From Sedimentisphaerales bacterium (GTDB lineage Bacteria > Planctomycetota > Phycisphaerae > Sedimentisphaerales > SM23-30), in NCBI GenBank assembly GCA_963666285.1, contig OY762711.1: a stretch of 64,000 nucleotides of DNA; one strand, written 5' to 3'. Below are positions 24,013 to 49,283 of this stretch, piece by piece. The first letter of the stretch is position 1. Every line of letters starts with the position of its first letter. The notes beneath the pieces were generated by a model. That model ran no database searches and was not told the origin of the DNA. It saw nothing but the letters and a program-made list of their open reading frames with translations. Made by a program: the position numbers and the translations under genes.

Positions 24013-24108
24013 AATATTTATGTGTATTTCTTGAACTATCATATTATACTTAGTTTACTGCCTAAATCGATGATTCTTTTATAAAAACTATTACTCTTCA
24101 GAAGTAAC

Positions 24109-24291: not shown

Positions 24292-24447
24292 TATATGAAA
24301 TGAAAACAACAGAATTTATTAGGTTTATAGAAGATAACATAAAAACAGGTCTTACCACAGAAGCTATCATGAAAAATGCCTATGCGATATTATCAAATGA
24401 TAACAAATACCATACTATACAAAAATTAAAAACAGAGAATAGAAATA

Positions 24448-24535
24448 CAAAAGGTTCCGGTAAAAACTGAACCTTTTGGGTAAGTCCCCCCTCCCAGATA
24501 TGAACCATAAGGTACATATTTTACCGGAACTTTTT
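24448..24535. repeat. Inverted pair of palindromic sites upstream of integrase
   Basis: AAAAGGTTCCGGTAAAA (24449-24465) vs TTTTACCGGAACTTTTT (24519-24535), 16/17 match; the left site is itself CAAAAGGTTC-N11-GAACCTTTTG. Confidence 0.7.
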
Positions 24536-24561
24536 TATAGCAGTACAATTTATACAATAAT

Positions 24562-25800
24562 ATGGAAGCCAAAGTCGATCATAAAAGAAAATACCTAAAC
24601 GCCAAAGAACGATTGTTTTCAGATGAAAATATATGCGCTGAAAATAGAAATTTATTCAAACGCTTTTTTACATACCAAGAAAGAAAACTTAAAAGAATCA
24701 ACAGATTACAGAATCTTGATCCTTCAACTTACAAAACACTTTATCAATATGTTAACAGATTCAAAAACACAAATAAATGGTTTAACAATAAACCGTGGAA
24801 ATCACTGACAAAAAAAGATATTGAGAAAGTATATAATGATTTAGAAGATGGCATTATCGTCAAAAGTAATGGCGAGATGTATAAAGACAGAGATGGCTAT
24901 TATGATAAAGTTTTCAAAAGTAAACCATTTGACATGGCTGGTGTTGGCAAATACGCCAGAGAAGTAATTGAGTACTGTACGAATATCGCTCCACATGTTA
25001 GATTTGCTAGTGACGAAGAGTTTCAAAAGATTGTTAATATAACATCAAATCCTTTACAAAAATTATTATTGTGGCTCTCGTTTGATATTGGAGAAAATGT
25101 TGATTCATTGCTACAACTTAAAAAAAATGACTTCTATCGAGAAATTAATCAATTTACTAAAGATCCGGAATATAGAGTAAATCTTAGAAATGAGATTCTG
25201 AAACGTAGCAGAAAAGCTAGGGCAGAAATAACAATCTATAGCGAAACAGTTAAATTACTGGATTTGATTTTAGAAGATCTAAAACCTAACGACTACATTT
25301 TTAATTTTGGATATAGAAGTGCAAAGAAATTTTTAGATAGATTAGTAAAAAAAGTTAATGCAAAATGCTTACCAAACGGTGAACTAATCACTTGGAAAGA
25401 CTTCAGAAGTGGTATGGCTTGTTCATTACTAAGAAAGGGATGGGTAACGGATGAAGTAAATGCTAGGTTAGGCCACAGACCTTCATCTAAAGAAATCGAC
25501 AAATATGTTGATTTTTTAGCATTAGATCGTCATAGACCGAAACAAAAAGTGCAGCAATATGAAATGTCTCAATTAAATGATGAACTGCAAAAATATAAAG
25601 AGGATGCAAAATTACAGGCAAAACGTCGTGAAGAAGAAAAGAATAAAGCTAATGAGCAGATGATTCAAATGGTAGAATTGTTAACAGAAAGTCTTATTAC
25701 TAATAGTCCAAAAATGGATCAAGATACTCTGAAAAGAAATGAGCCTATTTTCAATAAGTTGATCGATCTTAAGAGACATCTGATGCATAATAATACATAA
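24562..25800 (+). CDS. Atypical tyrosine recombinase/integrase with C-terminal coiled coil
   Basis: TWKDFRSG...RLGH.PSS..IDKY; the first catalytic Arg position reads IGENV. Confidence 0.75.
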   Translation: MEAKVDHKRKYLNAKERLFSDENICAENRNLFKRFFTYQERKLKRINRLQNLDPSTYKTLYQYVNRFKNTNKWFNNKPWKSLTKKDIEKVYNDLEDGIIVKSNGEMYKDRDGYYDKVFKSKPFDMAGVGKYAREVIEYCTNIAPHVRFASDEEFQKIVNITSNPLQKLLLWLSFDIGENVDSLLQLKKNDFYREINQFTKDPEYRVNLRNEILKRSRKARAEITIYSETVKLLDLILEDLKPNDYIFNFGYRSAKKFLDRLVKKVNAKCLPNGELITWKDFRSGMACSLLRKGWVTDEVNARLGHRPSSKEIDKYVDFLALDRHRPKQKVQQYEMSQLNDELQKYKEDAKLQAKRREEEKNKANEQMIQMVELLTESLITNSPKMDQDTLKRNEPIFNKLIDLKRHLMHNNT

Positions 25801-25857
25801 GCTACCCCCATAATCGGTTAAATATTCATAAACCGTCTTTTTCTTTTTTTTATAACC

Positions 25858-26640
25858 ATGTCTGACCCAATCCAAGAATATGCACTAAATGCAATTTACG
25901 AAAAGCATTACAGCACAATTGAATCAATAATTGATACAGAAGATAAAGAGATAATAGATAATGCTCTTAACGATGCATACGAATCTGGCTTAACCCGTGG
26001 GATTGCAGAACATCCAAGATATACACGTATAGATATCGAAGGCAGAGATGGATGTTATGCGATATACAGAAAAAAGCCTGAAAGCAACACGATTACAACA
26101 GAAGTCCTTACTCCTGGCGTTAATCTAACGATGAAAACACCTGTGGATGATACCGCATTACAAATGGAATCCGCTGATCTTATTTATGAACTTATTCAAG
26201 GTGGAGAGCCAGCAATAGATGAACTTGATTGTTATTTACGACCATTCGAACATTTGGCCTGTAATAAAAATACGGTCAGAACAAACAAGGAAACTAAAAA
26301 GGAGCAGCCTTCGCTTGAAAAAATAGCAATCGAGCATTCAGGGGTAATGAACGATAAATTACCTGAAGGATATTCTCCAATAGAATACTTAGAAGATATG
26401 GGAGAGTTGGAGTATGAAATAAGCGAACTGGTACAGGAAGGAAAAGAATATCTTGCCAAAAATAAATATGATATGGCTTCACTTATATTTAAGGACGTAT
26501 CTAACCTGCAGAGCATACATGACAGCTTGACTGAAGCAGAAATAAAAGAAGTAATTGATGTTGTAGAAATTATGGATACTGCTGCAAGGGATCATATACC
26601 AAACAGGCTTTATAGTAATATCTATAAGATGAAATATTAA
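25858..26640 (+). CDS. Hypothetical protein, tandem paralogue A
   Basis: 260 aa; aligns end to end with the next gene. Confidence 0.75.
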   Translation: MSDPIQEYALNAIYEKHYSTIESIIDTEDKEIIDNALNDAYESGLTRGIAEHPRYTRIDIEGRDGCYAIYRKKPESNTITTEVLTPGVNLTMKTPVDDTALQMESADLIYELIQGGEPAIDELDCYLRPFEHLACNKNTVRTNKETKKEQPSLEKIAIEHSGVMNDKLPEGYSPIEYLEDMGELEYEISELVQEGKEYLAKNKYDMASLIFKDVSNLQSIHDSLTEAEIKEVIDVVEIMDTAARDHIPNRLYSNIYKMKY

Positions 26641-26697
26641 CCCCCTAAATCAGTTAAATATTCATAAACAGTTTTCATATTTTTCGTTTTGATACCC

Positions 26698-27462
26698 ATG
26701 ACTGACCCATTTCAAAAAACCGCAATAAATGCAATATATCAGAAATATTACAATAAGCCAGGCACTTTAATAGATACAGAAGATTCAGAACTGATAAGCA
26801 ATTCACTCAACGATGCCTATCAATCAGGATTAAATCGCGGACTCTTAGAACACCCAACATACAGGCAAATTGACATAGAAGGTTTGCTCGGACATTATGC
26901 CACCTATAAAAGAGAGCCAGATAGTAATATAATAACAACTGAAGTCCTAACCCCTGGAATAGAACTGGTAATTAAAACTTCTGTAGATGACTACGAAGAA
27001 CAACGATATGCTACAGAACAAATTTATAGGTTACTGGAATGTGAAACACCAACAGACAAGGATATTGATAAATATATGCGACCTTTTGAACATCTCTCCT
27101 CCAAGACAAGCAAACAAAAGAATGAACCTAAACCATCCTTAGAAAATATTACAGCGGAGTATAATTGTGGTATTTCTAGTAAGCTACCTGATGGTTATCA
27201 TTTAGTTGACTACATGGAAGATATTGGCGAATTAAAATTTGAGATTGATGAACTAATACATAAAGGAAAACTATCTGTAGAAAAAGCGAATTATCGTATG
27301 GCTGTATCCGAGTTTAAAGATGTTACTGACTTAAAGAGTATTCGGGCTTACTTATTACAAGGTAAATTTTCTAATGCAATATCTGGAATTGACAAACTTG
27401 ATACCAAAGCGAGGGAACACATACCCAATAGATTGTATGGGAAAATATACAAGATGGAATAA
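26698..27462 (+). CDS. Hypothetical protein, tandem paralogue B (start set to ATG 26698 by alignment)
   Basis: MTDP vs MSDP start; shared IDIEG, TTEVLTPG, RPFEHL, LPxGY, ARxHIPNRLY. Confidence 0.75.
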   Translation: MTDPFQKTAINAIYQKYYNKPGTLIDTEDSELISNSLNDAYQSGLNRGLLEHPTYRQIDIEGLLGHYATYKREPDSNIITTEVLTPGIELVIKTSVDDYEEQRYATEQIYRLLECETPTDKDIDKYMRPFEHLSSKTSKQKNEPKPSLENITAEYNCGISSKLPDGYHLVDYMEDIGELKFEIDELIHKGKLSVEKANYRMAVSEFKDVTDLKSIRAYLLQGKFSNAISGIDKLDTKAREHIPNRLYGKIYKME

Positions 27463-27531
27463 CAAACTTGCCTTACAAGTAAATCATCGTTAATATATTC
27501 AGATAACATTATGTAAATATGGAGAAATAAC

Positions 27532-27930
27532 ATGGAACTTAACATTATTGACTATTCATCACTCTGGTTCTGTGATATCAATAAAGAACCGCTTCCAGCT
27601 AAAAGGAATGGCAAATTCATCTTACTCATAAATGAAACTTCAAGGTGGGCAGTATTTTCTCCGAAGGCTCTATCCCCGTACCATGCTAATATTGCTGAAA
27701 GATTTTGTAGCCAACAAAATATCCCTGGGACATATAATGCAGCAAAATCTAAATATTATATCAGCGATCCTACCTGGAATATAAATGGTGGCGGCAGATG
27801 GGATATTGATGATGAGCAGAACTTGCTAACCATATATGGCTCTTCAGATGCTTATGGTAGCCTTGATCTTCACGGCTTATCTCGCATGATCGAAGAAACT
27901 GGTAAATATGAGAATGTGTGGGTGCGTTGA
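27532..27930 (+). CDS. Janus/Ocnus (PHPT1)-like phosphohistidine phosphatase fold protein
   Basis: GKFILL...YHANI...GGGRW...IYGSSDAYG parallels PHPT1 FKYVLI...YHADI...GGGRI...VYGYSMAYG; GGAG SD present. Confidence 0.6.
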   Translation: MELNIIDYSSLWFCDINKEPLPAKRNGKFILLINETSRWAVFSPKALSPYHANIAERFCSQQNIPGTYNAAKSKYYISDPTWNINGGGRWDIDDEQNLLTIYGSSDAYGSLDLHGLSRMIEETGKYENVWVR

Positions 27931-28098
27931 GAAAAAGATATAACCTCTCATATTCCACTGTTAATTTTATCCGCCAATGAGTCCCAATGTACACCAAATT
28001 CATTTACTAGCATTTGTACATCAATAGAACTTTTCATATTGAAAAGCTGACCTGCAATGTAGTGGAGTTCGTAAAGACAAATACCATAAATATGCGTT

Positions 28099-28314
28099 TT
28101 ACTTCATAAGCGAAAAAATACGCTCCTCTCTTTTTGTTGTTATTCCTTTATGCTCTTTTACAATTCCAAGTGACTTCATTAACTCCAACGCTTTAATCGC
28201 AGTACGCCATTGTGTTTGCGTTTTTATGGAAATTTGCCTTACCGACAACTCTTTTTCTGATTCTAAGAGTGATTTTATCAAACCAACGATATCTGGCAAT
28301 GTTCTTCTTATCAT
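28099..28314 (-). CDS. Small winged-helix transcription regulator (archaeal style)
   Basis: 71 aa; LSVRQIS...WRTAIKALELMKSLGIV. Confidence 0.7.
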   Translation of the reverse strand: MIRRTLPDIVGLIKSLLESEKELSVRQISIKTQTQWRTAIKALELMKSLGIVKEHKGITTKREERIFSLMK

Positions 28315-28452
28315 ATCAGTATAACTATGCAGATACCTTTTTATACTACCTCTGCACAGTTATACATATATTGAATAAATTTTTCACTTTTGACTATGTT
28401 TCCGTAGTTAAAGGGAACTAAATATATAAAATGAAAGATAATACAGGTTAAT

Positions 28453-28587
28453 ATGATTGACAAAACAATAAAGGAAATACAGAAAATCATTAACATCTAT
28501 GAGAAAAAAGAAATTTCCGAAAAAGAAGCAATAGAAAGAATCCAGGCAAAGATTGATCTAGTCACTTTTGGATATATGAACAACTAA
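28453..28587 (+). CDS. Small hypothetical protein (~44 aa)
   Basis: MIDKTIKEIQKIINIYEKKEISEKEAIERIQAKIDL...; TATA-like ATATATAAA about 22 nt upstream. Confidence 0.4.
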   Translation: MIDKTIKEIQKIINIYEKKEISEKEAIERIQAKIDLVTFGYMNN

Positions 28588-28595
28588 TTTCATAC

Positions 28596-29885
28596 TTATT
28601 TTGGAATGCATACGACTTTGGAAAAACAAAATTCTTGAAACCCAATGTTTCCGTATTCTTTCGAATTCCCTGAATATTTAAGTCCACCAAATGGAATACT
28701 AGGATTCCAATGATTCGTATTGTTGATCTCAATTGTGCCAGCATTTAGTTTAGATGCAATATTAAGCGCAGTATTCTTATCATTTGTAAATATATTTGCC
28801 CCTAAATCAAATTTGACTGAATTTGCAAGCCTAACCGCCTCATCATCACTTTTGAATGTAATGATTGGTAAAATTGGACCAAACACTTCTTCGTTCCATA
28901 CTTTCATTTGTTCATTAACATTAGATAAAAGCGTAGGTTGAAAAAATAATGGATTACTGTAATCTGTATTGTTCTTATGTTCAATTGCTCCATTATTTAT
29001 TGCATCTTTATACTGCTCACAAATCTTTTTGAAAAAAATATCGTTAATCAACGGCCCAAGTTCTGAAAAGTTATCATTTGGGTCACCAATCTTCTTTTTA
29101 CCAATACAGAATAACATTTTTTCAACAAATTCGTCAATTTTATCTTCATGAATAATTACTCGTTTTATTGCATCACAATACTGACCGTTATTAAAGAATC
29201 TCTCAAAATATATTTTGTCAATAATGCCATCAATGTCTGCATCATTAAAAATAATTGCAGGATTCGATCCACCTAGTTCAAGGTTTGGAATAATGTTTTT
29301 TGGAAGTAAATCCTGTGAAATTACCTTACCAGTCTCTCTACTGCCTGTAAACCAAACACCGTCAATATCTTGGCTAATCATTTTTTCTCCAAGAGTTTTA
29401 TCTCCTTGAAATAATTTCAAATAATCAGCTAAATCAGTTTGAGATAATAATTCATTCATTATTTTTGAAAAATTTTTGCTATACTCTGAGAATTTAACTA
29501 CAACCGTGTTACCAACAAGTAAATTTGGGATTACTCCTGATATAAATATTCCAAATGGAAAGTTCCAAGGAAGAATGACAGCATATAGACCCTTTGCTTG
29601 ATATTAGATTTTTGATATTTGCTTTTTATTTTCAAATAATATTTTATCAGCAATTGACTTTTCTACGTTATTTAAGTACCAATCAAATACTTCTAAATTG
29701 AAATCAATTTCAGCCATAGATTGACCAATAGGTTTATTTGTATCAACCGTTATCGAGTTTGCAATAATATTTTTGTTGCTACAAATCAATTCAAATAGTT
29801 CCTTTATAATATCTATTCTATATTCCAAACCGTTTTCAGACCATGCGATTTGAGTATCCTTTAAATGTTTAATAGTTTGTTCCAT
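28596..29885 (-). pseudogene. Aldehyde dehydrogenase interrupted by one in-frame TAA (29604-29606)
   Basis: The 93-aa and 287-aa ORFs share a frame; the intervening sequence encodes ILPWNFP...GNTVVVKFSE; FTGS, LELGG, GQYC and EEVFGP are present. Confidence 0.88.
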
Positions 29886-29887
29886 TG

Positions 29888-30559
29888 TTATAACATAAAT
29901 TTAGTTCTTTCGTATGACTTGTATAGTACAGCAATCCCTTTTTTGTCTTTGAGATAAATAGGGTATTTTTCAAAATCGAATCCATTAATATTCGCTTTAA
30001 CACAATCACTAAATATCAATGAATAATTATCTGAATCTTGATGTTTTAAAGCCATATAGCTTGAAATTAATTCTGAATGGAAATTTGCTGATATATCAGA
30101 TACTAATCGATTGCTAAATGAAGTATATTTAGGACTAAATATATAATCTTTATTATTGACCTTAATAATTAGATAATTGTGGGGAACGTATCCTAATTGG
30201 GCATATTTCTCGCCAGCAGGAGTTTGCTCAATTATATTTTTTTTATATTTTTCTTCAATTATCCCATAACCCCTAAGCATTTCAATGTTTTTACATCCTT
30301 TAGATATAAGAGCGATTGCTGTTGCGACTGAATATTGATCGCAACCTGAATAGAACCGCTCGTCAAACACTTCTTCATACAACCTTTTTACAAGATCTTT
30401 TTTGTGTATTGCAATCAGAATACTAACAATAGTTTCATCAACAAAATCTGGGTTGTAAGTAATTTCCGAAAATTCTTCCAACCATTTGTTATAGGCTTCA
30501 TTGTCTTTGATATTTTCATTCATATAGAATTTTGATTCATGTTCATTCATGTTTTCCAT
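29888..30559 (-). CDS. Hypothetical protein, possible transglutaminase-like Cys-His motif
   Basis: 223 aa; SGCDQYS...PHNYL; coupled to the ALDH. Confidence 0.55.
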   Translation of the reverse strand: MENMNEHESKFYMNENIKDNEAYNKWLEEFSEITYNPDFVDETIVSILIAIHKKDLVKRLYEEVFDERFYSGCDQYSVATAIALISKGCKNIEMLRGYGIIEEKYKKNIIEQTPAGEKYAQLGYVPHNYLIIKVNNKDYIFSPKYTSFSNRLVSDISANFHSELISSYMALKHQDSDNYSLIFSDCVKANINGFDFEKYPIYLKDKKGIAVLYKSYERTKFML

Positions 30560-30953
30560 TTTTCTTCTCGTAGTCCTCTATTAACCAGACACTCGTTTTA
30601 TTCTCACTAATCATATTATCAATAATATTATTAATATTATGATTAGATAAATCATCAAAGGATGATTTGGTATAATCTATGCCACATAGCAATTGGTCTA
30701 TTGACAATATAAACTTTTGCATACCTGTAGATTTAAGCCCTCCATTATCAATAATAATCACATTTATATTTATTCCTTTTGAGACCGCTTCTTTAAGTGC
30801 TAAGATCGCAGAATGCCGTAATCCTCCATCGCCTAAAATTGCAAAAACATTATTTTGACCAGATAACCTTGAACCAAATGCACTAGCTATTGAACCGCCA
30901 AGACACAGAATTGAATAATAACATATGTAATTCCTCTCTTCCTCAAAGAAGGA
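30543..30953 (-). pseudogene. 5'-truncated TPP-binding domain (IorA-like C-terminus)
   Basis: Open frame with no start codon ahead of the TPP motif: LCLGGSIASAFG...AILGDGGLRHSA...VIIIDNGG..STG.Q (GDG...N TPP motif). Confidence 0.75.
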
Positions 30954-30986
30954 TTAGATGTGCGTTTAAGTCTTCGGGAGATTCAT

Positions 30987-31511
30987 TCAAGAATTATTCA
31001 TTAGATACTTTTGACAGTATTTATGACAACCTTCAATTTCTAGATTTACCTTGCAAAAATGAGCTACATCTTTACACGCAGAGAAATATCCAAGATTAAT
31101 GATGTCAGATTTTATTTCATTATCATAGGCATCGAAAACATCTTTGGTCAAGGTATTTGTAAAAAAGAACACATCAGTATCATTTAATGTAGTATTTAAT
31201 GATAAGTTTAATGATGGATAATAGTCATCGCAGTATTTTTTACAATTTGGTGTAAACGGATATTTTTTGCAATGATTAATAATCTCTGAACATGTTGAAA
31301 AATATTCATTTGTTATTTTATTTACTTGTTCAGCTAAAGGTAAATCATCAAAATTCGATTGAATATAGAATTCTGTTCCCGCTGAATCACTGGTAATTAC
31401 ACTTTCAGTTGAGAAAATCCTTATCCTAAATAAAACAATTATCAACAATAAGGTAAAAATACATATCCCTATACTCAATGCAGGATGTAGCTCTGTATTT
31501 CCCGTTGCCAT
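30987..31511 (-). CDS. Membrane-anchored Cys-rich hypothetical protein
   Basis: N-terminal TM helix; repeated C..HC...C.KYC motif; TTTATAAA 22 nt upstream. Confidence 0.65.
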   Translation of the reverse strand: MATGNTELHPALSIGICIFTLLLIIVLFRIRIFSTESVITSDSAGTEFYIQSNFDDLPLAEQVNKITNEYFSTCSEIINHCKKYPFTPNCKKYCDDYYPSLNLSLNTTLNDTDVFFFTNTLTKDVFDAYDNEIKSDIINLGYFSACKDVAHFCKVNLEIEGCHKYCQKYLMNNS

Positions 31512-31619
31512 TTTATTAACTTATTATCATTTCTTTATAAACATTTTTATCGAAAGATTATAAAAATAAGTAGTAATGTTTATAAAGTTAGAATTCACAA
31601 TTAAAATCTATGGGGGAAA

Positions 31620-32606
31620 ATGATGAAAAATAGTTTAGCTGTTATATTAACATTTCTTTTTGTGCTTACATCTTGTTTAAGCGGTTGTACTTCACACGAA
31701 TTAAACACAGAAAAGCCTTATTCTGAAGTTACAAACTTAGAGGCAACTGAACAAGAAAAAATAATTGTTGATGCTGAGTCTAGCGAAAAAAAGATAGAAT
31801 CACAAGCCCCAACTTATATTGGTAATTTTAGAGTGCAAGACAACGATAGAGAATTAGAAATAATATTTAGTCTTTATGATCCTTCTAAAGCATACATGTC
31901 CTCAAATGGTTATGTATCCATAAGGATAGAATCAAATAATGGAAAGACTTTGTATTTAGATAATCATCGTGTTCTTGAATCTGACTTTTCAACATTTACC
32001 CAGACATTGACAGGAGAACAATTTGAAGCGTATTCATGGAAAATACCTCTTTCTGAAATTAATAAATCAGAAAGTTGGAGTGGTATGGCATATATTCAAT
32101 TTAAGTCGGAAAATGGAATAATATTTGAAGAACTTTCTACATCAGTGTTTGGGTTACCTGAATATTCAAAAGATGAGTTAGATATAATTTCAAGCCTTGA
32201 ATTTAGTAAAAATGCAGTGGTAATCAATAAAACTATTAAACAGGATGGTTTAGAAGTTACTTTAAAACAAATAGGGTTTTTCATTAAAAATGAGTATGAT
32301 ACAAAAACGACTTATTATAGAGCTGATTTTATTGTTTATAATTACGGAAGAGAAGCAAGTAGAATATCTTCTTATAACGGCTACTTAATTCATAATAAAA
32401 GTCAATACGACAGAAGTTACAACAGTAACCTTGATGTATATGACTTAAAAACTGGCATACAAAGAGAAGGATATTTACTTTTTGACAATGTTCCAAGTAA
32501 TCTGGCAGGAGAAATAATCATTAGTGCAGGATCTGCATATGATCGCAACTATAATAATATCGACTACACATTTAGAATTAATCTTGATGACTACACTACT
32601 AAGTAA
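31620..32606 (+). CDS. Putative lipoprotein with C-terminal DUF4352-like domain
   Basis: Lipobox LSGC; ADFIVYNYG...REGYLLFDNVP. Confidence 0.65.
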   Translation: MMKNSLAVILTFLFVLTSCLSGCTSHELNTEKPYSEVTNLEATEQEKIIVDAESSEKKIESQAPTYIGNFRVQDNDRELEIIFSLYDPSKAYMSSNGYVSIRIESNNGKTLYLDNHRVLESDFSTFTQTLTGEQFEAYSWKIPLSEINKSESWSGMAYIQFKSENGIIFEELSTSVFGLPEYSKDELDIISSLEFSKNAVVINKTIKQDGLEVTLKQIGFFIKNEYDTKTTYYRADFIVYNYGREASRISSYNGYLIHNKSQYDRSYNSNLDVYDLKTGIQREGYLLFDNVPSNLAGEIIISAGSAYDRNYNNIDYTFRINLDDYTTK

Positions 32607-32783
32607 AATGTGCAAAACCGTTTTAACAATAAACTGGTTTTTTAAGATGTAGGCATAATGAAATTAATGAATGAATGTGGCGTAGTATTTTACGAATGCA
32701 AATGTATTATTATTTTCTTTATTTTACATTTATTTATTTATTTATTTGTATGCAAATACTCAAATAATACATGTTATTTGATT

Positions 32784-41063: not shown

Positions 41064-41090
41064 CTCTACTCTAATTTTGGGGCAGAAGTA

Positions 41091-41156
41091 TTTATAAACC
41101 TTTTTATACTATTTAATTGGATTGGTTTAATAATAATTTGAAGTAATATTTATAAA
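41091..41156. promoter_or_regulatory. Divergent archaeal-type TATA promoters
   Basis: TTTATAAA at 41091-41098 (preceded by AAAAAGG on the minus strand, 27 nt before ATG 41063) and at 41149-41156 (22 nt before ATG 41179). Confidence 0.65.
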
Positions 41157-41178
41157 TTTAATATATTTAACAAAATGT

Positions 41179-42129
41179 ATGGATGAAGGAAATAATAAAC
41201 TTAATCATGTAATTTTATTGGATGGTGATTCTTCTGTTGACGGATTTCTTGGTGGAAAAGGTAAATCATTGCAAAAATTAAAAAGGGATGGCTTTCCATC
41301 TTTGCCAGGATTTGTTATTACTTATAGATATCTTAAAACTATTTTAGATTCCCCACAACTACAAAATGAATTAAGGAGCTTTGATGAGATCTCACACAAA
41401 GACTTAAAGTCCTTAAAAGAATTAAGCAAATCGATAACATCACAATTAGAGTCAATTTCAATTTCTGAATCTTTTAGAGAAGAAGTGTTTAAAGTATATG
41501 ATGATTTAAACTTATCTAAAGTGGCAGTTAGAAGTTCAGCTTTGATGGAAGACTCTTCTGCAAATTCATGTGCTGGATGCCTGGAAACGTTTCTTAATGT
41601 ATCAAAAAACGAACTAATAAAAAATATTGTTAATTGTTGGAAATCATTGTTTTCTTTAAGATCACTATATTATCTAAAATCAAAGAATATTCAATCTCAA
41701 GACCTTATTATGTCTGTTGTAATCCAAAAAATGGCAGAACCTCGTGTAGCTGGTGTTTGTTTTACAAGAAACCCTGTTACATCAAATCCGCATGAAATTC
41801 TTATTGAAGCCGGAATTGGTTTAGGGGAAGTAGTGGTCAATGGATCAATAACTCCGGACAGGTATATTGTTGACGAAAACTTTAATATATTATTAATAGA
41901 GGTTGGTAAGCAGGATACAATGATATCTACCAATAGTGATGGCATTGTAAACGAGAAATGTACTTTTGAAGAATCAGCTAGTCAAAAATTACCTGACAAA
42001 CATATAATTGAACTTTCTAGGATAGCAAAAGATATTGAAAAAGCAAATGGTATGCCTATGGATATCGAGTGGGCATTGACTGAAGTTGGGTTAATTATTC
42101 TTCAGGCAAGACCAATTACAACATTATGA
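41179..42129 (+). CDS. PEP/pyruvate-binding (PPDK_N, ATP-grasp) domain protein
   Basis: GGKG..L, VAVRSSA..ED..S.AG, GLGE.VV.G..PD, DIEWA...LQARPIT. Confidence 0.9.
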   Translation: MDEGNNKLNHVILLDGDSSVDGFLGGKGKSLQKLKRDGFPSLPGFVITYRYLKTILDSPQLQNELRSFDEISHKDLKSLKELSKSITSQLESISISESFREEVFKVYDDLNLSKVAVRSSALMEDSSANSCAGCLETFLNVSKNELIKNIVNCWKSLFSLRSLYYLKSKNIQSQDLIMSVVIQKMAEPRVAGVCFTRNPVTSNPHEILIEAGIGLGEVVVNGSITPDRYIVDENFNILLIEVGKQDTMISTNSDGIVNEKCTFEESASQKLPDKHIIELSRIAKDIEKANGMPMDIEWALTEVGLIILQARPITTL

Positions 42130-42762
42130 AATTTGTTGCAATACGTCAAAAACATCTTCAATAATTTTGATTTGTGCATCTGCATTACAATGGTTTGGGT
42201 TTTCATTGAATTCTATGCAAAACATATTTGCAGATTTTGCAGAGCATACTCCATACTCCGAATCTTCAATCACAACGACTTCATTATTACTTAGATTAAG
42301 TTGTTCTAGACAATTCAAATATGGTTGAGGGTCAGGTTTTAGAAGTTTACAATCATCTTTAGTTACAATTTTCTCAAAATAATGTATTAAGCCTTTTTCT
42401 TTCAATATTTCATAAACAAATTCTTTACTTGAAGATGTAACTAGGGCTAATCTATATTTTTGCTTTAAGCTTTCAAGAGTTTTGTGAACATTTGCCATTA
42501 TTTCAATATTTTCATAAAATGAATCAGAGTTGATTATTGTTATAAAAGACTTTTCTAGTTTGTCTACAATTTGAATGTTCAGATTATTATTTTGGACAAT
42601 ACTTCTAAATATATTTATAGAAGACATCCCCTTAAACACCCCCCAATTGATATTATTGGTGTTTATGCCATATTCGATACATGTTTCTTTTTGTGCTTTG
42701 GAGTAAGCATTCTCCGAATTTATAATTACTCCATCTAGGTCAAAAAGTATTGCTTTAATCAT
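42124..42762 (-). CDS. HAD-superfamily phosphatase (beta-PGM-like)
   Basis: FDLDGV, VTSS, KPDP, IEDS..GV motifs. Confidence 0.9.
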   Translation of the reverse strand: MIKAILFDLDGVIINSENAYSKAQKETCIEYGINTNNINWGVFKGMSSINIFRSIVQNNNLNIQIVDKLEKSFITIINSDSFYENIEIMANVHKTLESLKQKYRLALVTSSSKEFVYEILKEKGLIHYFEKIVTKDDCKLLKPDPQPYLNCLEQLNLSNNEVVVIEDSEYGVCSAKSANMFCIEFNENPNHCNADAQIKIIEDVFDVLQQIS

Positions 42763-43693
42763 TTAATTTCTTTAAGTATATCTTATCCGCTAAACAATTT
42801 TTTAATCCAGTCCTATGACATACTTTTGTTTCTGGAAATGGTATTTGTAAGTCTTTTGATATACTGATTCTTTTGTCCTGTGCAATTTGATAAAGGCATG
42901 GGATATAATAATCGTTGTAAATGTTTTTGAATCTGCATAGTTGGTTTTCTGATTGTTTTGGCAGATTATCCGTATATAAAACACCCTTTGTAAAAATGTC
43001 TAAATTCAATCTCCCTTCGTAAGTGTCAATTAGCTTTTGAATAATAGTATAATATTCATTAAATGGAATTATGTACTCTTGATTGTCATTCCAATAATCT
43101 TCCTCATCTCTAATTAGTCCGATTGTTAATGTTTCAATATTTGGCAAATTTGTTTCAACGTATTTTATGACTTCTGTAAGTTGGTTCTTATTATATTGAG
43201 TCATTAAAAATACTAATTTGACTTTGTAAAATTTAGAGTATTCGTTTATATTTTCTGTAATGTCTTTAAGTGGTTTGAATGATTTATCTTCTGCCTCTAA
43301 AGATTGGAAACTAATTCCTAGTTTGATATTTTTATGTTTTTTATCTAAATTACGCAATAAATACCCATTAGTATATACACCTACTGTTTTATTTTGAGAT
43401 TCAAGATATGTAATAAATTTATTTATATCTTTATGGATTAACGGCTCTCCGCCTTGTAAATCGTATTTCTCAATTTGTGGGTTATTTTCGACGATTTTTT
43501 TGATATGCCCTAAATCCATAACATTTCTTCTAGCCATACTTTTGTTATTAAAACAATAAGCACAATTTAGATTACAATCACTTGTTATAAATAGCAGAGC
43601 AGTTTTTGAATAATGCTTATATTGCTCTTTCCACCTATTTGGATCAATTCTTAATTTGAACCTTTTATGATTCTTATTTGCAACTTGCTCCAT
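42755..43693 (-). CDS. Radical SAM protein
   Basis: CNLNCAYC, GGEP, TNG; additional C-terminal cysteines. Confidence 0.9.
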   Translation of the reverse strand: MEQVANKNHKRFKLRIDPNRWKEQYKHYSKTALLFITSDCNLNCAYCFNNKSMARRNVMDLGHIKKIVENNPQIEKYDLQGGEPLIHKDINKFITYLESQNKTVGVYTNGYLLRNLDKKHKNIKLGISFQSLEAEDKSFKPLKDITENINEYSKFYKVKLVFLMTQYNKNQLTEVIKYVETNLPNIETLTIGLIRDEEDYWNDNQEYIIPFNEYYTIIQKLIDTYEGRLNLDIFTKGVLYTDNLPKQSENQLCRFKNIYNDYYIPCLYQIAQDKRISISKDLQIPFPETKVCHRTGLKNCLADKIYLKKLND

Positions 43694-43797
43694 TTATAAG
43701 TGGAATATCTATTACTTTATAAACATTATTAAGGCATTTGGATAAAACAGTGCCAATTAAAAGAAAACTTTTTAATAAGTTATATTTTGATATTTAT

Positions 43798-44916
43798 ATG
43801 GTCACTGTAGATGGAACAGAATTTAAGCTGATGGGATATGAACGCTTTTTTGAGGTACAGGGAGCTTCTTATTTATTTAGCAGTTTTTATGCAAAGCTTT
43901 ATTCTGATTTAGGATTACTTATTATCAATAATGATGGTTTCGTTTCATTATTTTTGGATAAAAATAAGGTATCAAAAAACCAAAGAGATTCTTTTGCATT
44001 TTATAGTAGTTTAGATGAATTTCAAAACTATCTTACTTCTTTCAAACAATTTCTTTCTGAATCAGACTCTTTTTTTGAATCAATATTGTCTAAAGAGAAA
44101 ATTACAAGCTTAGATTTAAATACTTATTTCAAGCAGATCATCAAATTCTTTAATTTCTATAAATGGACTGAATTCTTTTATAGCGACTATTCTTACATTG
44201 CTGTTAAAGATAATTCTACGCTAAAGAATGGTACACTTGAAAATAATTTATTGCAATTAGGGGAAATCAAAACAGATGGGAGAATTCTTTTGAATAAGAT
44301 ATTTAATAAATCCGATTCTTATTTGAATCGTTTTTTAGATAAAATTGCTAAACTTAAACCTATAAATAGGGATGATTTGAAACTGCTTACTTATTCAGAA
44401 ATTGTCATTTACTTTGATAACGGAGTAGTGCCAAAGATAGATAACAGAAAAAATGACTTTACATTATTAACAAGCCCAGGTCTGAATTTATTAAAAAACG
44501 CCCTACATCAGGATTTTATTACGGAATTCAAGGAGCAGACTTCAGACGTTGTTAAAGGAATAGTAGCTTGTGAAGGAGCTATTGAAGGTACTGTTAGAGT
44601 TTTAGATTTCAACTTTGATAATTTTGATATTCTATTTGATTTAATTAATGAAATGAATGATGGTGAAATATTGGTGGCAGAAACAACATCTCCTGACATA
44701 TTTCTTGCGTGCGAAAAAGCTTCAGCGATTGTTACTAATCAAGGTGGTGTAGGATCACACGCTGCAATTGTTAGCAGAGAAATGGGTATTCCGTGTATCG
44801 TTGGAACTAAAGATGCAACTAAAGTATTGAAAACTGGTGACTTGGTAAAAGTTGATGCGTTTAAAGGAGTAGTTCAATTTATCAAAAAAGTGCCAAGGAA
44901 TGAAGATGGAAAATAA
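43798..44916 (+). CDS. PEP-utilising enzyme, phosphohistidine mobile-domain protein (start revised to ATG 43798)
   Basis: GEILVAETTSP...GGVGSHAAIVSREMGIPCIVG; GAAAACTTTTTAAT box about 22 nt upstream of ATG 43798. Confidence 0.88.
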   Translation: MVTVDGTEFKLMGYERFFEVQGASYLFSSFYAKLYSDLGLLIINNDGFVSLFLDKNKVSKNQRDSFAFYSSLDEFQNYLTSFKQFLSESDSFFESILSKEKITSLDLNTYFKQIIKFFNFYKWTEFFYSDYSYIAVKDNSTLKNGTLENNLLQLGEIKTDGRILLNKIFNKSDSYLNRFLDKIAKLKPINRDDLKLLTYSEIVIYFDNGVVPKIDNRKNDFTLLTSPGLNLLKNALHQDFITEFKEQTSDVVKGIVACEGAIEGTVRVLDFNFDNFDILFDLINEMNDGEILVAETTSPDIFLACEKASAIVTNQGGVGSHAAIVSREMGIPCIVGTKDATKVLKTGDLVKVDAFKGVVQFIKKVPRNEDGK

Positions 44917-45364
44917 AATAATTGTTTTAGTTTCTTCTATTGCCATAAAAAATAACAAATTATTAATTGTACATAATAAATGGTCTGATGATAGATTTGG
45001 ATGGACTTTACCTTGTGGACATGTTGAACCAAATGAAAAGCTGGATGTAGCAGTTAAACGAGAATTTATGGAAGAAACTGGTTTACAACCATTAGAGCCG
45101 TTTAAGTTTGAGTTTTTATTACAAGTGAAAAAAGCTACAACAATGATTTATCATTTTTTTTATTCAATAACTAGATTTGATGGAGTTCCGCATGTAAACA
45201 ATGACCCTGATACTATCATTACTAATCTGGAATATTTTTCATTTTCAGAGGGTGTGTCTAAAATCTTATATGAAGATGTCAGATTTGCATTAAACAAATG
45301 GAACTCAAAAGAGACTGCTAGTCCATTATTTTATGACTTAACTACTCCTAGAGAACATTTATAA
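44900..45364 (+). CDS. NUDIX hydrolase
   Basis: GHVEPNEKLDVAVKREFMEETGL Nudix box. Confidence 0.9.
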   Translation: MKMENKIIVLVSSIAIKNNKLLIVHNKWSDDRFGWTLPCGHVEPNEKLDVAVKREFMEETGLQPLEPFKFEFLLQVKKATTMIYHFFYSITRFDGVPHVNNDPDTIITNLEYFSFSEGVSKILYEDVRFALNKWNSKETASPLFYDLTTPREHL

Positions 45365-45388
45365 AATATTTGAGACTCCATATTAGTT

Positions 45389-46906
45389 ATGAGTCCAGCA
45401 AAAAATGATTCAAGTGCAAGAGATGAATTGATGAGATACATTTCTGAGAAGGGATTGGTCTATGGCCCTAGCCCTAATATATACGAAGGTGGTGTTAGCG
45501 GATTTTATGATTTCGGCCCTTTAGGGAAATCATTAAAGAACAATATTGAAAATTCAATTAGAAAAGCATTTGATATCTTTTCTTTTTATGAAGTTGAATG
45601 TCCAATTGTTGTTCCTGAAAAGGTTTGGAAAGCCTCTGGTCATATTGATGGTATTTCTGATCCTATTGTAACTTGCTCTAAGTGTAATGCTGTTTGGAGA
45701 ATTGATAATTTAATAGAAGAGCAAAATTCTGATATTGATGCTGAAAACATGACTACTAAAGACATGTCTGATTTCTTATCAAACAATGAAGTTATTTGTC
45801 CTAGTTGTAAGGTTAGGTTGCCTTCTGAAGTAAAAGAACATAATCTTATGTTAAAGACAACAGTTGGTTTTGGGACTCCTATGTATAATAGACCTGAAAC
45901 AGCAACTACTACCTATTTACCATTCTTAGAGTATCTTAGATTTTTTAGAGATAAACTACCTTTTGGAGTCTACCAAATTGGAAATGCCTATAGGAATGAG
46001 ATTTCACCAAGACAGCATTTACTAAGAGGTAGAGAGTTTACGCAAGCAGAAGCACAGCTATTTCTTTTTAAGGATCAAAAAGAGAACTTTGCAAAGTTCG
46101 AAGAAGTTGCAGATCTGGAATTACCGTTTTTAACTGCTGATGCTCAATTTAATAATGGAAATGTAATTACAATGTCACTGGCTGATGCAATTACTAATAA
46201 GGTACTTAAAAATAAAGCTTATGCCTGGACGTTGGGGATGACTTATAAATTATTTAGAGATTTAGGAATTCCTCGTGAAAATTTAAGATTTAATCAACAC
46301 TTACCAGACAAGCTTGCTTTTTATGCTGATGATGCATGGGATTTAGAGGTGAAATTCAAAAGTTTTGGTTGGGTTGAATGTTGCGGTTGTCATGATAGAA
46401 CCGATTATGACTTAACAACTCATAGTAAATTTAGTGGTAAAGAGTTAGTTGCATTAAATTTGACTACAAACAAAAAGGAAACACCTCATATCCTTGAAAT
46501 TGCTATTGGGCCAAATAGGCTTCTTTTGGCTGTTTTAGACTTAAATTTAGATTTAGGAATTGAAGGTGTCAGTAAACCCAAGTTAAAGCTTCCATCAAGC
46601 CTTTCTCCTATTAAAGTAGCTATTTTACCATTGTCAAAAAAAGAGCATATATTGGAAAAATCCGAAGAGATTTATTTGAATTTGAACAAAAAGATGAGAG
46701 CTCAATTAGATGAATCTGGAAGCATAGGGAAAAGGTATTTAAGACAAGATTCTATAGGTACTCCTTTTTGTATCACTGTTGATTTTGATTGTTTAGAACA
46801 AGACAATGAGAATTATGGAAAAGTAACAATTAGAAATAGAGATTCAGAAAAACAAGAAAGGGTAAAATTTGACAATATTGAATCTTGGATTGCTACAAAG
46901 TTATAG
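45389..46906 (+). CDS. glyS: Glycine--tRNA ligase, alpha2 homodimeric, archaeal/eukaryotic type
   Basis: GFYDFGPLG, WKASGH, RPETA, RNEISPRQHLLRGREFTQAE, C-terminal anticodon-binding domain SIGKRY..QD.IGTPFCITVD. Confidence 0.92.
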   Translation: MSPAKNDSSARDELMRYISEKGLVYGPSPNIYEGGVSGFYDFGPLGKSLKNNIENSIRKAFDIFSFYEVECPIVVPEKVWKASGHIDGISDPIVTCSKCNAVWRIDNLIEEQNSDIDAENMTTKDMSDFLSNNEVICPSCKVRLPSEVKEHNLMLKTTVGFGTPMYNRPETATTTYLPFLEYLRFFRDKLPFGVYQIGNAYRNEISPRQHLLRGREFTQAEAQLFLFKDQKENFAKFEEVADLELPFLTADAQFNNGNVITMSLADAITNKVLKNKAYAWTLGMTYKLFRDLGIPRENLRFNQHLPDKLAFYADDAWDLEVKFKSFGWVECCGCHDRTDYDLTTHSKFSGKELVALNLTTNKKETPHILEIAIGPNRLLLAVLDLNLDLGIEGVSKPKLKLPSSLSPIKVAILPLSKKEHILEKSEEIYLNLNKKMRAQLDESGSIGKRYLRQDSIGTPFCITVDFDCLEQDNENYGKVTIRNRDSEKQERVKFDNIESWIATKL

Positions 46907-47047
46907 AAATTGTATTTCTTTCTTTTTAATTATCCTTCAAGAAGGATTGATAAATAAATGAAAGCTAGCATACCACTAGCCTTCACAAATGAAATTCTTC
47001 CAAAACTTTCCATATGAATATCAAATAAAAACTAAGAAAATAAGAGA

Positions 47048-47896
47048 TTAGTCTCTTTTTCTTCTACTTAAATATGTTAGAATTCCTGTTGCAGCCAAAC
47101 CTAATGTTCCTGGCTCTGGTACAATTGGAGTATAGTCTTCTGAAACCATCACTCTTCCTGCTCTTCCGCCAAAATCATCTCCCGCTAAGTACATATTACT
47201 ACCATCTATAGCAACATCAGTAAGATTTCCATAATCCCTTCCAAGCATATATTCAGCTACAATACCTTTACCAACTCCACCTTCTAAGATAGTTTGATTG
47301 TCAGTTGTAAACAAGAAAGGCATACTTGCCAAACTTGAACCTGTACCGTTACCAAGTCCAGTGATTGAGCTTGTACTATTAAAAGCAAGATCAGTAGTTG
47401 TGATTGAACCATTTAATAGATTAAGCAAATCTAATCTATAATCATTATTACCAAGACTTTTTACTAATGGAGCATAATCGCTTCCGTTTAATGAAAAAGC
47501 ATCACCAACACCCTTATATGCACTAGCTACACCAAATGAAGCATTATCGAACTCATTACTTCTATTATAAATTTCTAAATCTCCATTCTGAAGATCAAGT
47601 GCGTAATTAATACCATTTTTATTCCAATTACCAGTATCTTGTACACTACTTGCATTACCTACAGTAGTTTCAAAAGTTAAATCTTTTCCAGAATCTACAG
47701 CAGCACCACCAGTACCGCTAGCATAGATTTTATCATCAGTTGTAGTAATACCTACTAATGGACCAGGCAACAAAACATCCTTATCAATGTTTATTGTCTT
47801 TGTAAGTGCTGCATCTGCATTTGGGGCTCCGGCAATACCAGCAGCCAATAAAGCAAGCCCTGTAAGTGGCTTTTTTAGGAAATTTGGAGTTTTCAT
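47048..47896 (-). CDS. PEP-CTERM sorted surface protein
   Basis: Signal peptide; VPEPGTLGLAATGILTYLSRRKRD. Confidence 0.85.
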   Translation of the reverse strand: MKTPNFLKKPLTGLALLAAGIAGAPNADAALTKTINIDKDVLLPGPLVGITTTDDKIYASGTGGAAVDSGKDLTFETTVGNASSVQDTGNWNKNGINYALDLQNGDLEIYNRSNEFDNASFGVASAYKGVGDAFSLNGSDYAPLVKSLGNNDYRLDLLNLLNGSITTTDLAFNSTSSITGLGNGTGSSLASMPFLFTTDNQTILEGGVGKGIVAEYMLGRDYGNLTDVAIDGSNMYLAGDDFGGRAGRVMVSEDYTPIVPEPGTLGLAATGILTYLSRRKRD

Positions 47897-47992
47897 TTTA
47901 TTATAACCTCTTTTGGTTTATGTTGTGGAATCAGACATAGTTTATATATCTTCTCCTTTTAACTATTCCTATGTGACTACACCCTGAATCAG

Positions 47993-48639
47993 TTAAAGCA
48001 TTAGTCGTTCTAAAGCCATATCAGCATCAGAATCCATCACATCTGCATATACTTGCGTTGTTGTAATCCTGGAATGACCAAGCTGTTTTTGGACAAGTCG
48101 AAGGTTACAATCGCTTGCCTTATATAAAAAGGTAGCGTATGTATGCCGAAGACTGTGGATCGAATACTGCGAGTCAAGTTTAGCTTTTTTGGCACAACGC
48201 TTGAAAGCTTTCTGTAAGGCTCTGGTGGTCAAATGCCCGCCTGTCCTGGTAGATATAAGTAAAGGTGCATCTGCATCTGTTGGTTCGCCAACGCTTTCTT
48301 TCCATTTCAGAAACTGAATACAGAGTCGCTTTACCTTTTTGGGCATAAATACCAAACGCTGCTTGCCGCCTTTACCATTTCTAACAAGAAGTGCCGGCTT
48401 TTTTGTATTGTTCAAATACATATCACCGCATGTTAAAGCTGCAAGCTCCATTACCCGAAGTCCGGTACTGATGGTTAGATGTGATACAAAGAAATCCTTG
48501 TATGCAACTCGTTCAGTGTAGGTCTGCGGTATCCTTGCATCCTTTTTGGTGATTTCTAGCAGCCACAAAGCCTCATTTCTGTCCAAAAACTTGTTTGGTG
48601 TCAGAATCCAATCATCCGAAATTAAGTTTTTTTATACAT
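47993..48639 (-). CDS. Xer-like tyrosine recombinase (catalytic domain only); 5' end out of frame at an A7 tract
   Basis: TGLRVMEL, GKGGKQR, HSLRHTYA, QLGH, TTQVY; AGGAG + ATG 48639 is one nucleotide out of frame with WILTPNKFLDR... Confidence 0.88.
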
Positions 48640-48659
48640 ATTCAATTCTCCTATAATCG

Positions 48660-48893
48660 AGTTCACATTTGGCGAGAAATATGAACTGAATAAAGAAGAC
48701 TTGACTTATTTAAATAATTGACTATAAAGGAGATAGGGCTTTTTGAGAGTCTTAATGAATTGAAGACAGCTTAACTAAATTAACACTGGAGAAATGTTAA
48801 AAATAGCCTATTATGGGCTGTAAAGTTGAAATTCTAAATAATTTGAAAATATGAAAGAAAAAACCAGTTCATATTTCTCGCCTTATATGAACT
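48660..48893. promoter_or_regulatory. Inverted pair of dif-like 11-6-11 recombination sites enclosing a sigma70-like promoter
   Basis: AGTTCACATTT-GGCGAG-AAATATGAACT (48660-48687) and AGTTCATATTT-CTCGCC-TTATATGAACT (48866-48893); TTGACT-N16-TATAAA at 48701-48728. Confidence 0.8.
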
Positions 48894-49283
48894 GGCTGGT
48901 CTCCGATTATACCAAATTTAGCCCGATTTCTAATCAATAAAAATAAGGATTTATAGAAGATTTTCACTATTTCTTATGAATTCTAACGAAAAAATAGCTT
49001 GTGTCTTAGAACTGCTTGCTGTTAAAATAACTAATGGAAATACAGTAATTTCTGTTATAGCAGTTATTTTGGGAATTATTACTGTAGATTAGGTTGAGAT
49101 TCGACTGGGATTCGGTCGGATTACTACAAGCAAAATATATATTATTCCAACGCATAAGTTAAGTTTATACGCTTTTGAAAGCATAAAACTTGATGAATAC
49201 CATACGAGAAGTATTATGTGTAGAAGTCGGGATATTGGAATATCCCGGAATTTAATATTATTTCCTTCGTAAAGGAGACCATT

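Follow-up and report, generated by a model that had tools for sequence, protein, structure and literature searches.

How does DNA that reads as archaeal come to lie inside a bacterial chromosome, and what brought it there? The question is raised by a stretch of 64,000 nucleotides (nt; henceforth the window, whose positions we use throughout) from a Sedimentisphaerales bacterium (GenBank assembly GCA_963666285.1, contig OY762711.1), which lies inside a 6,153,384-nt contig of a 6.35-Mb assembly (G000:C1:3360001-3424000). An earlier interpretation of this DNA, made without database searches (the sequence-only reading), had described window positions 24448-48893 as one archaeal stretch of about 23 kb, carried in a planctomycete island and bracketed and mobilised by two inward-facing tyrosine recombinases. 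We find that archaeal, DPANN-like genes, including a complete extra glycyl-tRNA synthetase (GlyRS), do lie in a bacterial chromosome within a mobile-looking island, and that the extent and the vehicle of the foreign DNA have to be redrawn. The explanation that we favour, and consider probable, is a composite island that recurs in the host's order and has had two of its slots filled with about 20 kb of DPANN (Woesearchaeota- or Pacearchaeota-like) DNA.

The host is a bacterium, since its genome carries a full-length bacterial small-subunit (SSU) rRNA (RF00177, 1456 bits); so much of the earlier description of the host stands, and its label ‘planctomycete’ was not confirmed. The family PF07596 (DUF1559), which is abundant in many planctomycetes, gave just two weak matches in this genome. 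As a separate observation, of six rRNA probe sequences only PLA886 matched, with one mismatch at two loci, the 16S genes at G000:C1:1184517 and 1451960, and all three EUB338 variants had more than two mismatches to the same genes. The flanks of 24448-48893 hold ECF sigma/FecR and PEP-CTERM genes, and no tRNA genes were found in the window. The region is AT-rich, as first described: its GC content is 31.2% compared with 41.1% genome-wide, a GC content of 30% or less occurs in only 2 of the 1269 5-kb windows of the genome, and the cargo block is uniform at about 30%. Judged by eye, upstream Shine-Dalgarno-like motifs are mostly missing from the cargo genes, again as described, and present for several backbone genes; by GC content at third codon positions (GC3), the cargo could not be told from PEP-CTERM and beta-helix genes that belong to the host itself.

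The extent of the foreign DNA can be read from sister islands. Comparison of the window, as protein and as DNA, with the remainder of the genome revealed a second copy (‘island B’, L081; C1:2946350-2959400), which is collinear, in inverted orientation, with window positions 19223-28584 (from a HerA-like ATPase through a 44-amino-acid (aa) open reading frame, ORF) and again with 47827-48687 (the start of a PEP-CTERM gene and a short recombinase), at protein identities of 36-79%. A complete genome of the same order (G036) holds the same gene series at 37-75% identity, plus a HARE-HTH protein. Specifically, the minus-strand genes at 19257-23209, identified with Pfam (the HerA-like ATPase, 19257-21338; a 148-aa ORF; an N4/N6 DNA methylase, 21778-22518; and a winged-helix protein, 22502-23209), have homologues of 59-75% amino-acid identity in the same order in island B, G036 and a third genome, G039. 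The plus-strand genes at 23352-24291 (small Cys-rich paralogues at 23352-23531 and 24109-24291 and a 150-aa ORF at 23560-24012) have homologues in island B at 58-79%, the small Cys-rich ones also in G036 and G039. Further on, 25858-28588 holds tandem 260- and 257-aa paralogues, a 132-aa Janus/Ocnus-like protein, a 71-aa winged-helix protein (28099-28314, minus strand) and the 44-aa ORF (28454-28588), with homologues in island B, and for the 260-aa paralogues also in G036 and G039. The PEP-CTERM protein (47048-47896, minus strand), with its bacterial sorting signal, occupies the same position in island B and G036.

Neither island B nor the G036 island contains the archaeal cargo. Homology between the window and island B stops at about 24320, resumes at about 25939 and stops again at 28584-28588, the last end lying 8 nt before the stop codon of an aldehyde dehydrogenase; at the right edge, 141 nt separate the GlyRS stop (46906) from the PEP-CTERM stop (47048). 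In the first of these gaps the sisters carry orthologous 377- and 374-aa Phage_integrase proteins (mutually 65% identical) that are barely related to the window's integrase, here called Int412 (E 0.01), and in the second, before the PEP-CTERM gene, they carry secreted proteins of about 1100 aa (27% identical over about 1000 residues) that show no relationship to the giant protein of the window (E 0.16). The backbone is therefore bacterial, because it is shared with island B and G036 and because none of 151 Nanoarchaeota genomes yielded a match to its 260-aa protein; for its winged-helix protein 12 of the 151 gave matches, all of them partial and about 80 residues long. The window copy departs from its sisters in two slots, and since these share the surrounding backbone without the archaeal cargo, the foreign DNA amounts to about 20 kb in two pieces, 24.3-25.85 kb and 28.6-47.05 kb, rather than one stretch of about 23 kb: 25858-28588 and 47048-47896 belong to the backbone.

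Among the cargo genes, the GlyRS (45389-46906, plus strand) is an intact second copy of the archaeal dimeric type. Over its full length it scores 469 bits against TIGR00389 (cut-off 243; E 2e-140) and 459 bits against NF003211 (cut-off 312), and its closest solved structure is NEQ417 (E 4.8e-88), which we take to be the Nanoarchaeum enzyme, followed by the human enzyme (about 2e-78) and, far behind, the bacterial-type 1ati (2.9e-47), presumably the Thermus enzyme. The three nearest Atlas clusters are 92-98% archaeal. A GTDB search with one genome per species found relatives encoded in 237 of 284 candidate stretches, and all 80 loci that were kept bear archaeal titles (Woese-, Pace-, Nano- and Iainarchaeota, besides archaeal labels that in some cases are generic or doubtful); the top nine (L001-L009) are 59-66% identical to the cargo enzyme, identity among metagenome contigs was no higher than 66%, and the loci holding the closest relatives have a cargo-like GC content of 26-34%. 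In a FastTree phylogeny of 80 rows (the window protein, the native enzyme of the host and the 78 loci in which 430 or more residues were aligned, two short loci being dropped), built from DPANN rows and the host's enzyme only, the cargo enzyme falls inside a 10-row clade with L001-L009 (support 100) and the host's own forms a long outgroup. By sequence similarity and tree placement, then, the cargo GlyRS is of Woesearchaeota/Pacearchaeota affinity.

The native GlyRS is retained (C1:6137869-6139290; 31% identical to the cargo copy), and the cargo type was found in none of five related genomes (three of the same genus and two of the same order), all of which have the native type only. The three host tRNA-Gly genes all have T at the discriminator position (U73), and archaeal and eukaryotic GlyRS prefer A73. 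Given this mismatch, the cargo enzyme probably charges the host's tRNA-Gly poorly, and the extra GlyRS is more likely a passenger than a working replacement.

The giant protein (32784-41063, minus strand) has 2,759 aa, with a signal peptide, FG-GAP repeats and a long C-terminal multi-pass membrane region. We found 13 relatives among 5.8 billion proteins, and the two that carry a taxon name are both Nanoarchaeota/Nanoarchaeia. It was matched at E<=1e-10 in 39 of 201 Nanoarchaeota genomes, the best match (1.5e-156) lying in the C-terminal membrane region; many of these genomes also encode that region by itself, as a protein of about 500 aa. In other genomes of the host's phylum it was matched in 2 of 200, at E of about 1e-24 and by the FG-GAP repeats alone. 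Going by these matches, the protein is of DPANN affinity, with relatives almost only in Nanoarchaeota.

Int412 (24562-25800, plus strand; GC 31%), which fills the slot of the unrelated sister integrases, is a divergent protein of 412 aa. It reached no family in Pfam, NCBIfam or PHROG at the usual thresholds: Pfam Phage_integrase gave E 1.5e-3 and 18.8 bits, below the cut-off of 27.1, and there was no NCBIfam family at E<=0.01, which ruled out an integron integrase (TIGR02249, NF011946). PF00589 is annotated on many of its relatives in precomputed form. An AlphaFold model built with 30 relatives (mean predicted local distance difference test, pLDDT, 87) has two domains, core-binding and catalytic, and Foldseek placed XerA (5hxy), XerH, lambda Int and Cre on top, each with probability 1.00. 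R215/R217/R220, R282, H305 and Y315 are invariant in 30 sequences of the family, their catalytic roles being assigned by position. From its modelled fold and these residues, Int412 is a tyrosine recombinase.

Full-length homologues of Int412 with 48-57% identity occur in 4 of 201 Nanoarchaeota genomes. One of them lies 90 nt from a tRNA-Glu gene (G050) and another adjoins a rolling-circle Rep gene next to housekeeping genes (G177); an integrase near a tRNA gene or beside Rep is the usual look of an integrated element. The flanks of the four DPANN homologues hold none of the window's backbone genes, and a viral contig collection yielded no Int412 relative by single protein or by a 30-sequence profile. 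A further, 52% homologue sits in a low-GC island of about 24 kb in a genome of about 55% GC (L192/L193; G296:C8:1-25000), together with a HerA-like ATPase, type III-like restriction-modification (R-M) genes, a PLD nuclease and a serine recombinase, and that island abuts a Mg-chelatase/ComM-like gene. The Int412 family is thus common to DPANN archaea and scattered bacterial islands and is not specific to archaea.

We propose the following account. In the backbone of the island, a HerA-like ATPase, a DNA methylase, a winged-helix protein and small Cys-rich proteins precede the integrase slot, the 260-aa proteins and a small winged-helix protein come next, and the slot that takes a large secreted protein is followed by a PEP-CTERM protein and the short recombinase. 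In the window copy the integrase slot (about 24.3-25.85 kb) holds Int412, from a family that DPANN appear to use in small integrated elements beside tRNA genes, and the cargo slot (28.6-47.05 kb) holds 12 genes of about 30% GC, including the second GlyRS and the 2,759-aa surface/membrane protein. An archaeal integrative element with an Int412-type integrase may have been excised imprecisely and so have gained adjacent chromosomal genes, before it reached the bacterium and was taken by recombination into the island already there. The 2.75 kb between integrase and cargo may reflect exchange with the backbone at a later time. Most of the cargo is probably passenger DNA. The foreign DNA is continuous with the chromosome of the bacterium. 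Its acquisition is recent, because the GC content has not drifted to that of the host, the five relatives lack this GlyRS and two cargo genes are broken.

We also considered a bolder extension of this account, which we regard as unlikely without dismissing it: that the Int412 family marks an element working in both domains, and that a Woesearchaeota- or Pacearchaeota-like DPANN archaeon attached to the host passed on the element together with chromosomal genes. If this were true, the block would be a footprint naming the bacterial host of a DPANN lineage, and the surface-protein slot could serve contact; a hint in this direction is that a 30% homologue of island B's 1107-aa protein shares a DPANN contig with a homologue of the window's giant protein.

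Several observations weigh against the composite-island account. The integrase and the cargo lie 2.75 kb apart with backbone between them, the cargo junctions at 28.6 and 47.0 kb share no repeat of at least 11 nt, and the cargo gene order was found on no DPANN contig. In a gene-order comparison around the closest GlyRS genes (80 genome and 80 metagenome loci, ±10 kb), the neighbourhoods of 163 loci (2.3 Mb) held no other cargo gene save isolated weak matches; the five genomes with the closest GlyRS have no close homologue of the cargo's PEP-utilizers protein, and one of them (G002) has no match to the giant protein. The best identities of only 45-66% imply a donor lineage that is unsampled. 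The family of Int412 is not confined to archaea: its six taxon-named relatives are three Pacearchaeota and three bacteria (Opitutaceae, Bacteroidetes and Sumerlaeota), 1 of 200 genomes of the host's phylum has a homologue (the 52% one, in the defence island described above), and in a tree of 33 rows archaeal and bacterial labels are intermixed. The tetranucleotide profiles, which the sequence-only reading had proposed as a check, separate host from DPANN weakly, with AT-richness dominating the correlation, and about 5% of ordinary host windows look ‘DPANN-like’ by this measure. Finally, the reads that bear on the contiguity of the locus come from one study and possibly from the assembly's own data, so they are not independent sampling.

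The remaining cargo genes belong largely on the same side of the balance. The PPDK_N protein (41179-42129, plus strand) has matches of only 38-44% identity, none of the nine taxon-named ones archaeal and most from the Candidate Phyla Radiation (CPR), and the nearest Atlas clusters to the PEP-utilizers protein (43738-44916, plus strand) are two CPR and one DPANN. The radical-SAM enzyme (42755-43693, minus strand) belongs to a rare subfamily, with 13 representatives at E<=1e-30 among 1.84 billion, none taxon-named, and Nanoarchaeota reach only 33-34%. These three, with the HAD phosphatase (42124-42762, minus strand) and the NUDIX hydrolase (44900-45364, plus strand), were identified with Pfam/NCBIfam. 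Between 29.9 and 32.6 kb lie a 223-aa ORF (29888-30559), the remnant of a TPP-dependent enzyme with in-frame stops upstream (30546-30953) and a 174-aa ORF (30987-31511), all on the minus strand, and a 328-aa lipoprotein-like ORF on the plus strand (31620-32606); none has a paralogue in the genome. These four ORFs, the HAD phosphatase and the NUDIX hydrolase have no lineage placement, and we count the four ORFs against the DPANN origin. The expectation of a uniformly archaeal block is thus borne out for the GlyRS and the giant protein, while the PPDK_N protein is mostly CPR-like, the PEP-utilizers protein CPR- or DPANN-like and the radical-SAM enzyme unplaced. Although all the genes named in the sequence-only reading are present (the archaeal/eukaryotic-type GlyRS, the split PPDK_N/PEP-utilizers pair and the giant FG-GAP protein), the split pair does not serve as a DPANN mark, as it does not tell DPANN from CPR.

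The other broken cargo gene is the aldehyde dehydrogenase (28596-29885, minus strand), which is split into a C-terminal piece (28596-29459) and an N-terminal piece (29604-29885), with stops and with residues missing between them. Its pieces are 43-45% identical to their best Nanoarchaeota matches versus 34% to the best match in its own genome, which speaks for the DPANN origin. In one Nanoarchaeota genome (G145:C16:18150-21248) a homologue of the dehydrogenase (43%) lies less than 1 kb from a homologue of the giant protein's membrane domain (29%), and this pairing is the only trace of a neighbourhood shared with the cargo.

The alternative that we regard as the strongest, while still rating it as rather unlikely, is that the block is a mosaic drawn from a mobile pool of CPR, DPANN and neighbouring lineages and delivered via a bacterial or viral intermediate. 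The mostly CPR relatives of the PPDK_N and PEP-utilizers proteins, the intermixed bacterial and archaeal labels in the Int412 family and the lack of synteny with any DPANN genome speak for such a pool, and a 2026 preprint describes protein clusters shared in this way with small mobile partners (bioRxiv 10.64898/2026.05.20.726742). Against it stand the GlyRS, a chromosomal housekeeping gene nested in a DPANN clade, the relatives of the giant protein in Nanoarchaeota genomes, the uniform GC content of the block at about 30% and, for a viral route, the viral contig collection that held no Int412 relative by protein or profile.

A second alternative, improbable in our view, is the one first put forward, i.e., a single element of about 23 kb that is bounded by both inverted-repeat sites and moved by the two inward-facing recombinases. 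The layout it names does exist. Besides Int412 (24562-25800, plus strand) there is, at the right, a tyrosine recombinase of 197 aa consisting of the catalytic domain only (47993-48586, minus strand; Phage_integrase E 1.7e-25), and both inverted site pairs are present. The left one (24449-24535), just upstream of Int412, has 31-nt arms (24449-24479 and 24505-24535) around a 25-nt spacer and is 84% complementary; the right one (48660-48893) has arms at 48660-48688 and 48865-48893 that are 90% complementary. Each is the sole repeat of its strength in 31.9 kb, and none as strong arose in 30 Markov-1 simulations. Moreover, the 19-nt motif ACCCCCnnAATCnGTTAAA has its only copies in the 6.35-Mb genome at 25804-25822, 26640-26658 and 47979-47997 (all plus strand). 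The first directly follows the stop codon of Int412, the second follows the first of the 260-aa genes and the third lies where the short recombinase has its stop codon, so that a copy in direct orientation is found immediately beyond the 3' end of either recombinase gene. The motif may serve the island in recombination or in regulation; the G039 island has two occurrences of a similar one (L206:10691-10709 and 7696-7714), and the copies in the window bracket a segment larger than the cargo.

What tells against a single element is that the two-recombinase frame recurs, both recombinase positions included, in island B and G036, where it holds ordinary bacterial cargo and no archaeal genes, and that homology to the sister island reaches left to 19.2 kb, well beyond the proposed boundary. 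The left and right inverted repeats are also unrelated in sequence. Elsewhere in the genome the left one had only 1-mismatch chance matches and the right-hand site had no copies, and the left repeat is not conserved upstream of Int412 homologues. We found no island ends or att sites.

The right-hand sites themselves point to a different role. Each arm consists of 11-nt inverted half-sites around a 6-nt spacer, GGCGAG in one and CTCGCC in the other, and the spacers are mutually reverse-complementary, which makes the arms two inverted copies of one asymmetric site, 178 nt apart. From this arrangement inversion, not excision, is predicted. The recombinase has homologues in island B (58%) and G036 (51%), its best family matches are Xer-type, and NCBIfam ‘tyrosine-type DNA invertase’ is matched at E 1e-6; as an integron integrase it was rejected, TIGR02249 giving 80.5 bits, below the cut-off of 265. 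The same site layout stands beside the recombinase of island B (L081:5132-5374; segment of about 180 nt), and no comparable repeat was found beside that of G036. Recombinase and sites together thus look like a candidate invertible switch, as judged by analogy, and not like the end of an element. Promoter-like hexamers in 48580-49300 were not above shuffled controls. The Logan contigs introduced below may run about 1.5 kb past the compared stretch (to about 49.1 kb if collinear) and would then cross the segment unbranched, in assemblies that drop rare variants. As an observation in its own right, the switch candidate of the window faces a beta-helix/PEP-CTERM cassette and then a type I R-M system, and that of island B faces an Eco57I/MmeI-like R-M gene.

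Could the join be an artefact? A chimeric assembly, in which co-occurring DPANN reads were falsely joined into a bacterial contig, was the main alternative left by the sequence-only reading, and we consider misassembly unlikely, indeed very much so. The composition of the block is an extreme outlier for the genome, as a chimera would have it, and the contigs in the relevant sequencing runs number in the hundreds of thousands, which makes the sample a community or an enrichment. Window positions 26500-31500 are present in only three runs, all from one study; two of these share a sample and the third comes from a second. In Logan's independent k-mer (de Bruijn) assembly, however, each of the two same-sample runs yields one 36,758-nt contig that spans the two cargo junctions and is identical to the window over 27600-47599 (0 differences), and in the run from the second sample (X3) 20 of 30 bins had short identical pieces, from backbone and cargo alike. 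To arise as a chimera, the locus would require two false joins, both falling exactly in the variable slot of a conserved island; a chimera would also leave the second foreign piece (Int412), 2.75 kb off, to be explained separately, and it would have to sit in a contig of 6.15 Mb. The Logan contigs hold no excision or empty-site joints over 27600-47599, and the genomes of the same genus are too diverged for DNA-level matching of the flanks.

Finally, that these are native or anciently acquired bacterial genes that merely look archaeal is hardly credible: synthetase transfer is common and often old, according to a published survey (Chaliotis et al. 2017, PMC5388404), but the GC content lies 10 points under the genome mean, five of five related genomes lack this GlyRS, the giant protein was matched weakly in only 2 of 200 genomes of the host's phylum and the native GlyRS has been kept.

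Some further features of the islands are worth recording. In island B the cargo consists instead of an FG-GAP protein of 1107 aa and a lipoprotein of 100 aa. The GC content of this island, about 35%, is likewise below the genome mean; its integrase has only generic matches in Nanoarchaeota, at 28% or less. On one DPANN contig (G170:C50:9-1298 and 2974-13338) a 30% homologue of the 1107-aa protein adjoins homologues of the window's giant protein, which hints that the large surface proteins of both islands have DPANN relatives. The 132-aa protein at 27532-27930 matches the Janus/Ocnus family (E 1.7e-6), which we take to be mostly eukaryotic phosphohistidine phosphatases, and has a 58% paralogue at G000:C1:2973984-2974376. 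About 185 nt just upstream of the R-M genes are conserved between the two islands (window 54197-54381 and L081:4792-4978), and the R-M systems behind them differ, being type I in the window and Eco57I/MmeI-like in island B. Elsewhere in the window, a short element at 12081-12393 has copies of 86-98% identity at C1:3343398, 3344995 and 2383839, and many related genomes contain less similar ones. If the Logan contig is collinear with the window beyond the compared stretch, its left end lies near this element.

Archaea-to-bacteria gene transfer is well known from phylogenies. What is rare about this locus is that the multi-gene block is large and un-ameliorated, and that it lies in a long bacterial contig next to a candidate vehicle. 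In the open-access library searched, neither the Int412 family nor a DPANN block of several genes within the chromosome of a bacterium had been described. It looks like a fresh case of DNA crossing between two prokaryotic domains, by a mechanism that we infer. The integrase family lends itself to testing, i.e., whether it recombines in bacterial and archaeal backgrounds and on which site. The foreign-type synthetase, on a mobile island and facing the ‘wrong’ discriminator base, is a natural experiment on what becomes of housekeeping genes after they cross domains. To our knowledge, the hosts of most Woesearchaeota and Pacearchaeota are unknown, and a recent transfer of DNA into a host bacterium nominates a DPANN-bacterium pair to look for; an ocean study states that DPANN may interact with archaeal and bacterial hosts.

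Set beside known systems, the locus resembles bacterial genomic islands and integrative elements: defence genes (HerA, methylase, R-M) sit in its conserved backbone, one slot is hypervariable, and the island has sisters both in its own genome and in related ones. It differs in that no ends or att sites of the island were found, that the window has no tRNA gene and that non-homologous integrases fill the integrase slot of different copies. The right-hand recombinase and its sites recall fim-type switches, in which short tyrosine recombinases of the FimB/FimE kind act on an invertible segment: here, too, the recombinase is short (about 200 aa), lacks an N-terminal domain and lies beside a short segment with inverted copies of one site. 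Unlike in those switches, the best family matches are Xer-type, a single orientation appears in the Logan contigs, if these are collinear, and G036 has no comparable repeat.

Integrons have been shown to bring cassettes of archaeal origin into bacteria (Ghaly et al. 2022, PMC9668308), and they share with this locus a tyrosine recombinase linked to archaeal genes in a bacterium, and hence a route for archaea-to-bacteria transfer. Int412, by contrast, matches no integron-integrase model, we saw no attC-type cassette boundaries, and the cargo is one 18-kb multi-gene block where integrons hold single-gene cassettes. Horizontally acquired or duplicated aminoacyl-tRNA synthetases in bacteria (reported in the survey cited above, PMC5388404) likewise place a foreign-type extra copy beside the native one, whereas the present copy has a DPANN donor clade, belongs to a large un-ameliorated block on an island and faces a probable U73 mismatch, if the A73 preference applies. 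Comparable as well are the protein clusters common to Nanobdellota, Patescibacteriota, Omnitrophota and others, with small mobile partners, in the preprint cited above (bioRxiv 10.64898/2026.05.20.726742): they too cross domains, join Nanobdellota with bacterial chromosomes, involve mobile partners and give trees in which the domains are intermixed. The preprint treats single protein clusters from one metagenome, whereas the locus described here comprises a block of several genes, lies within one long contig of a bacterium and has an integrase family that can be named.

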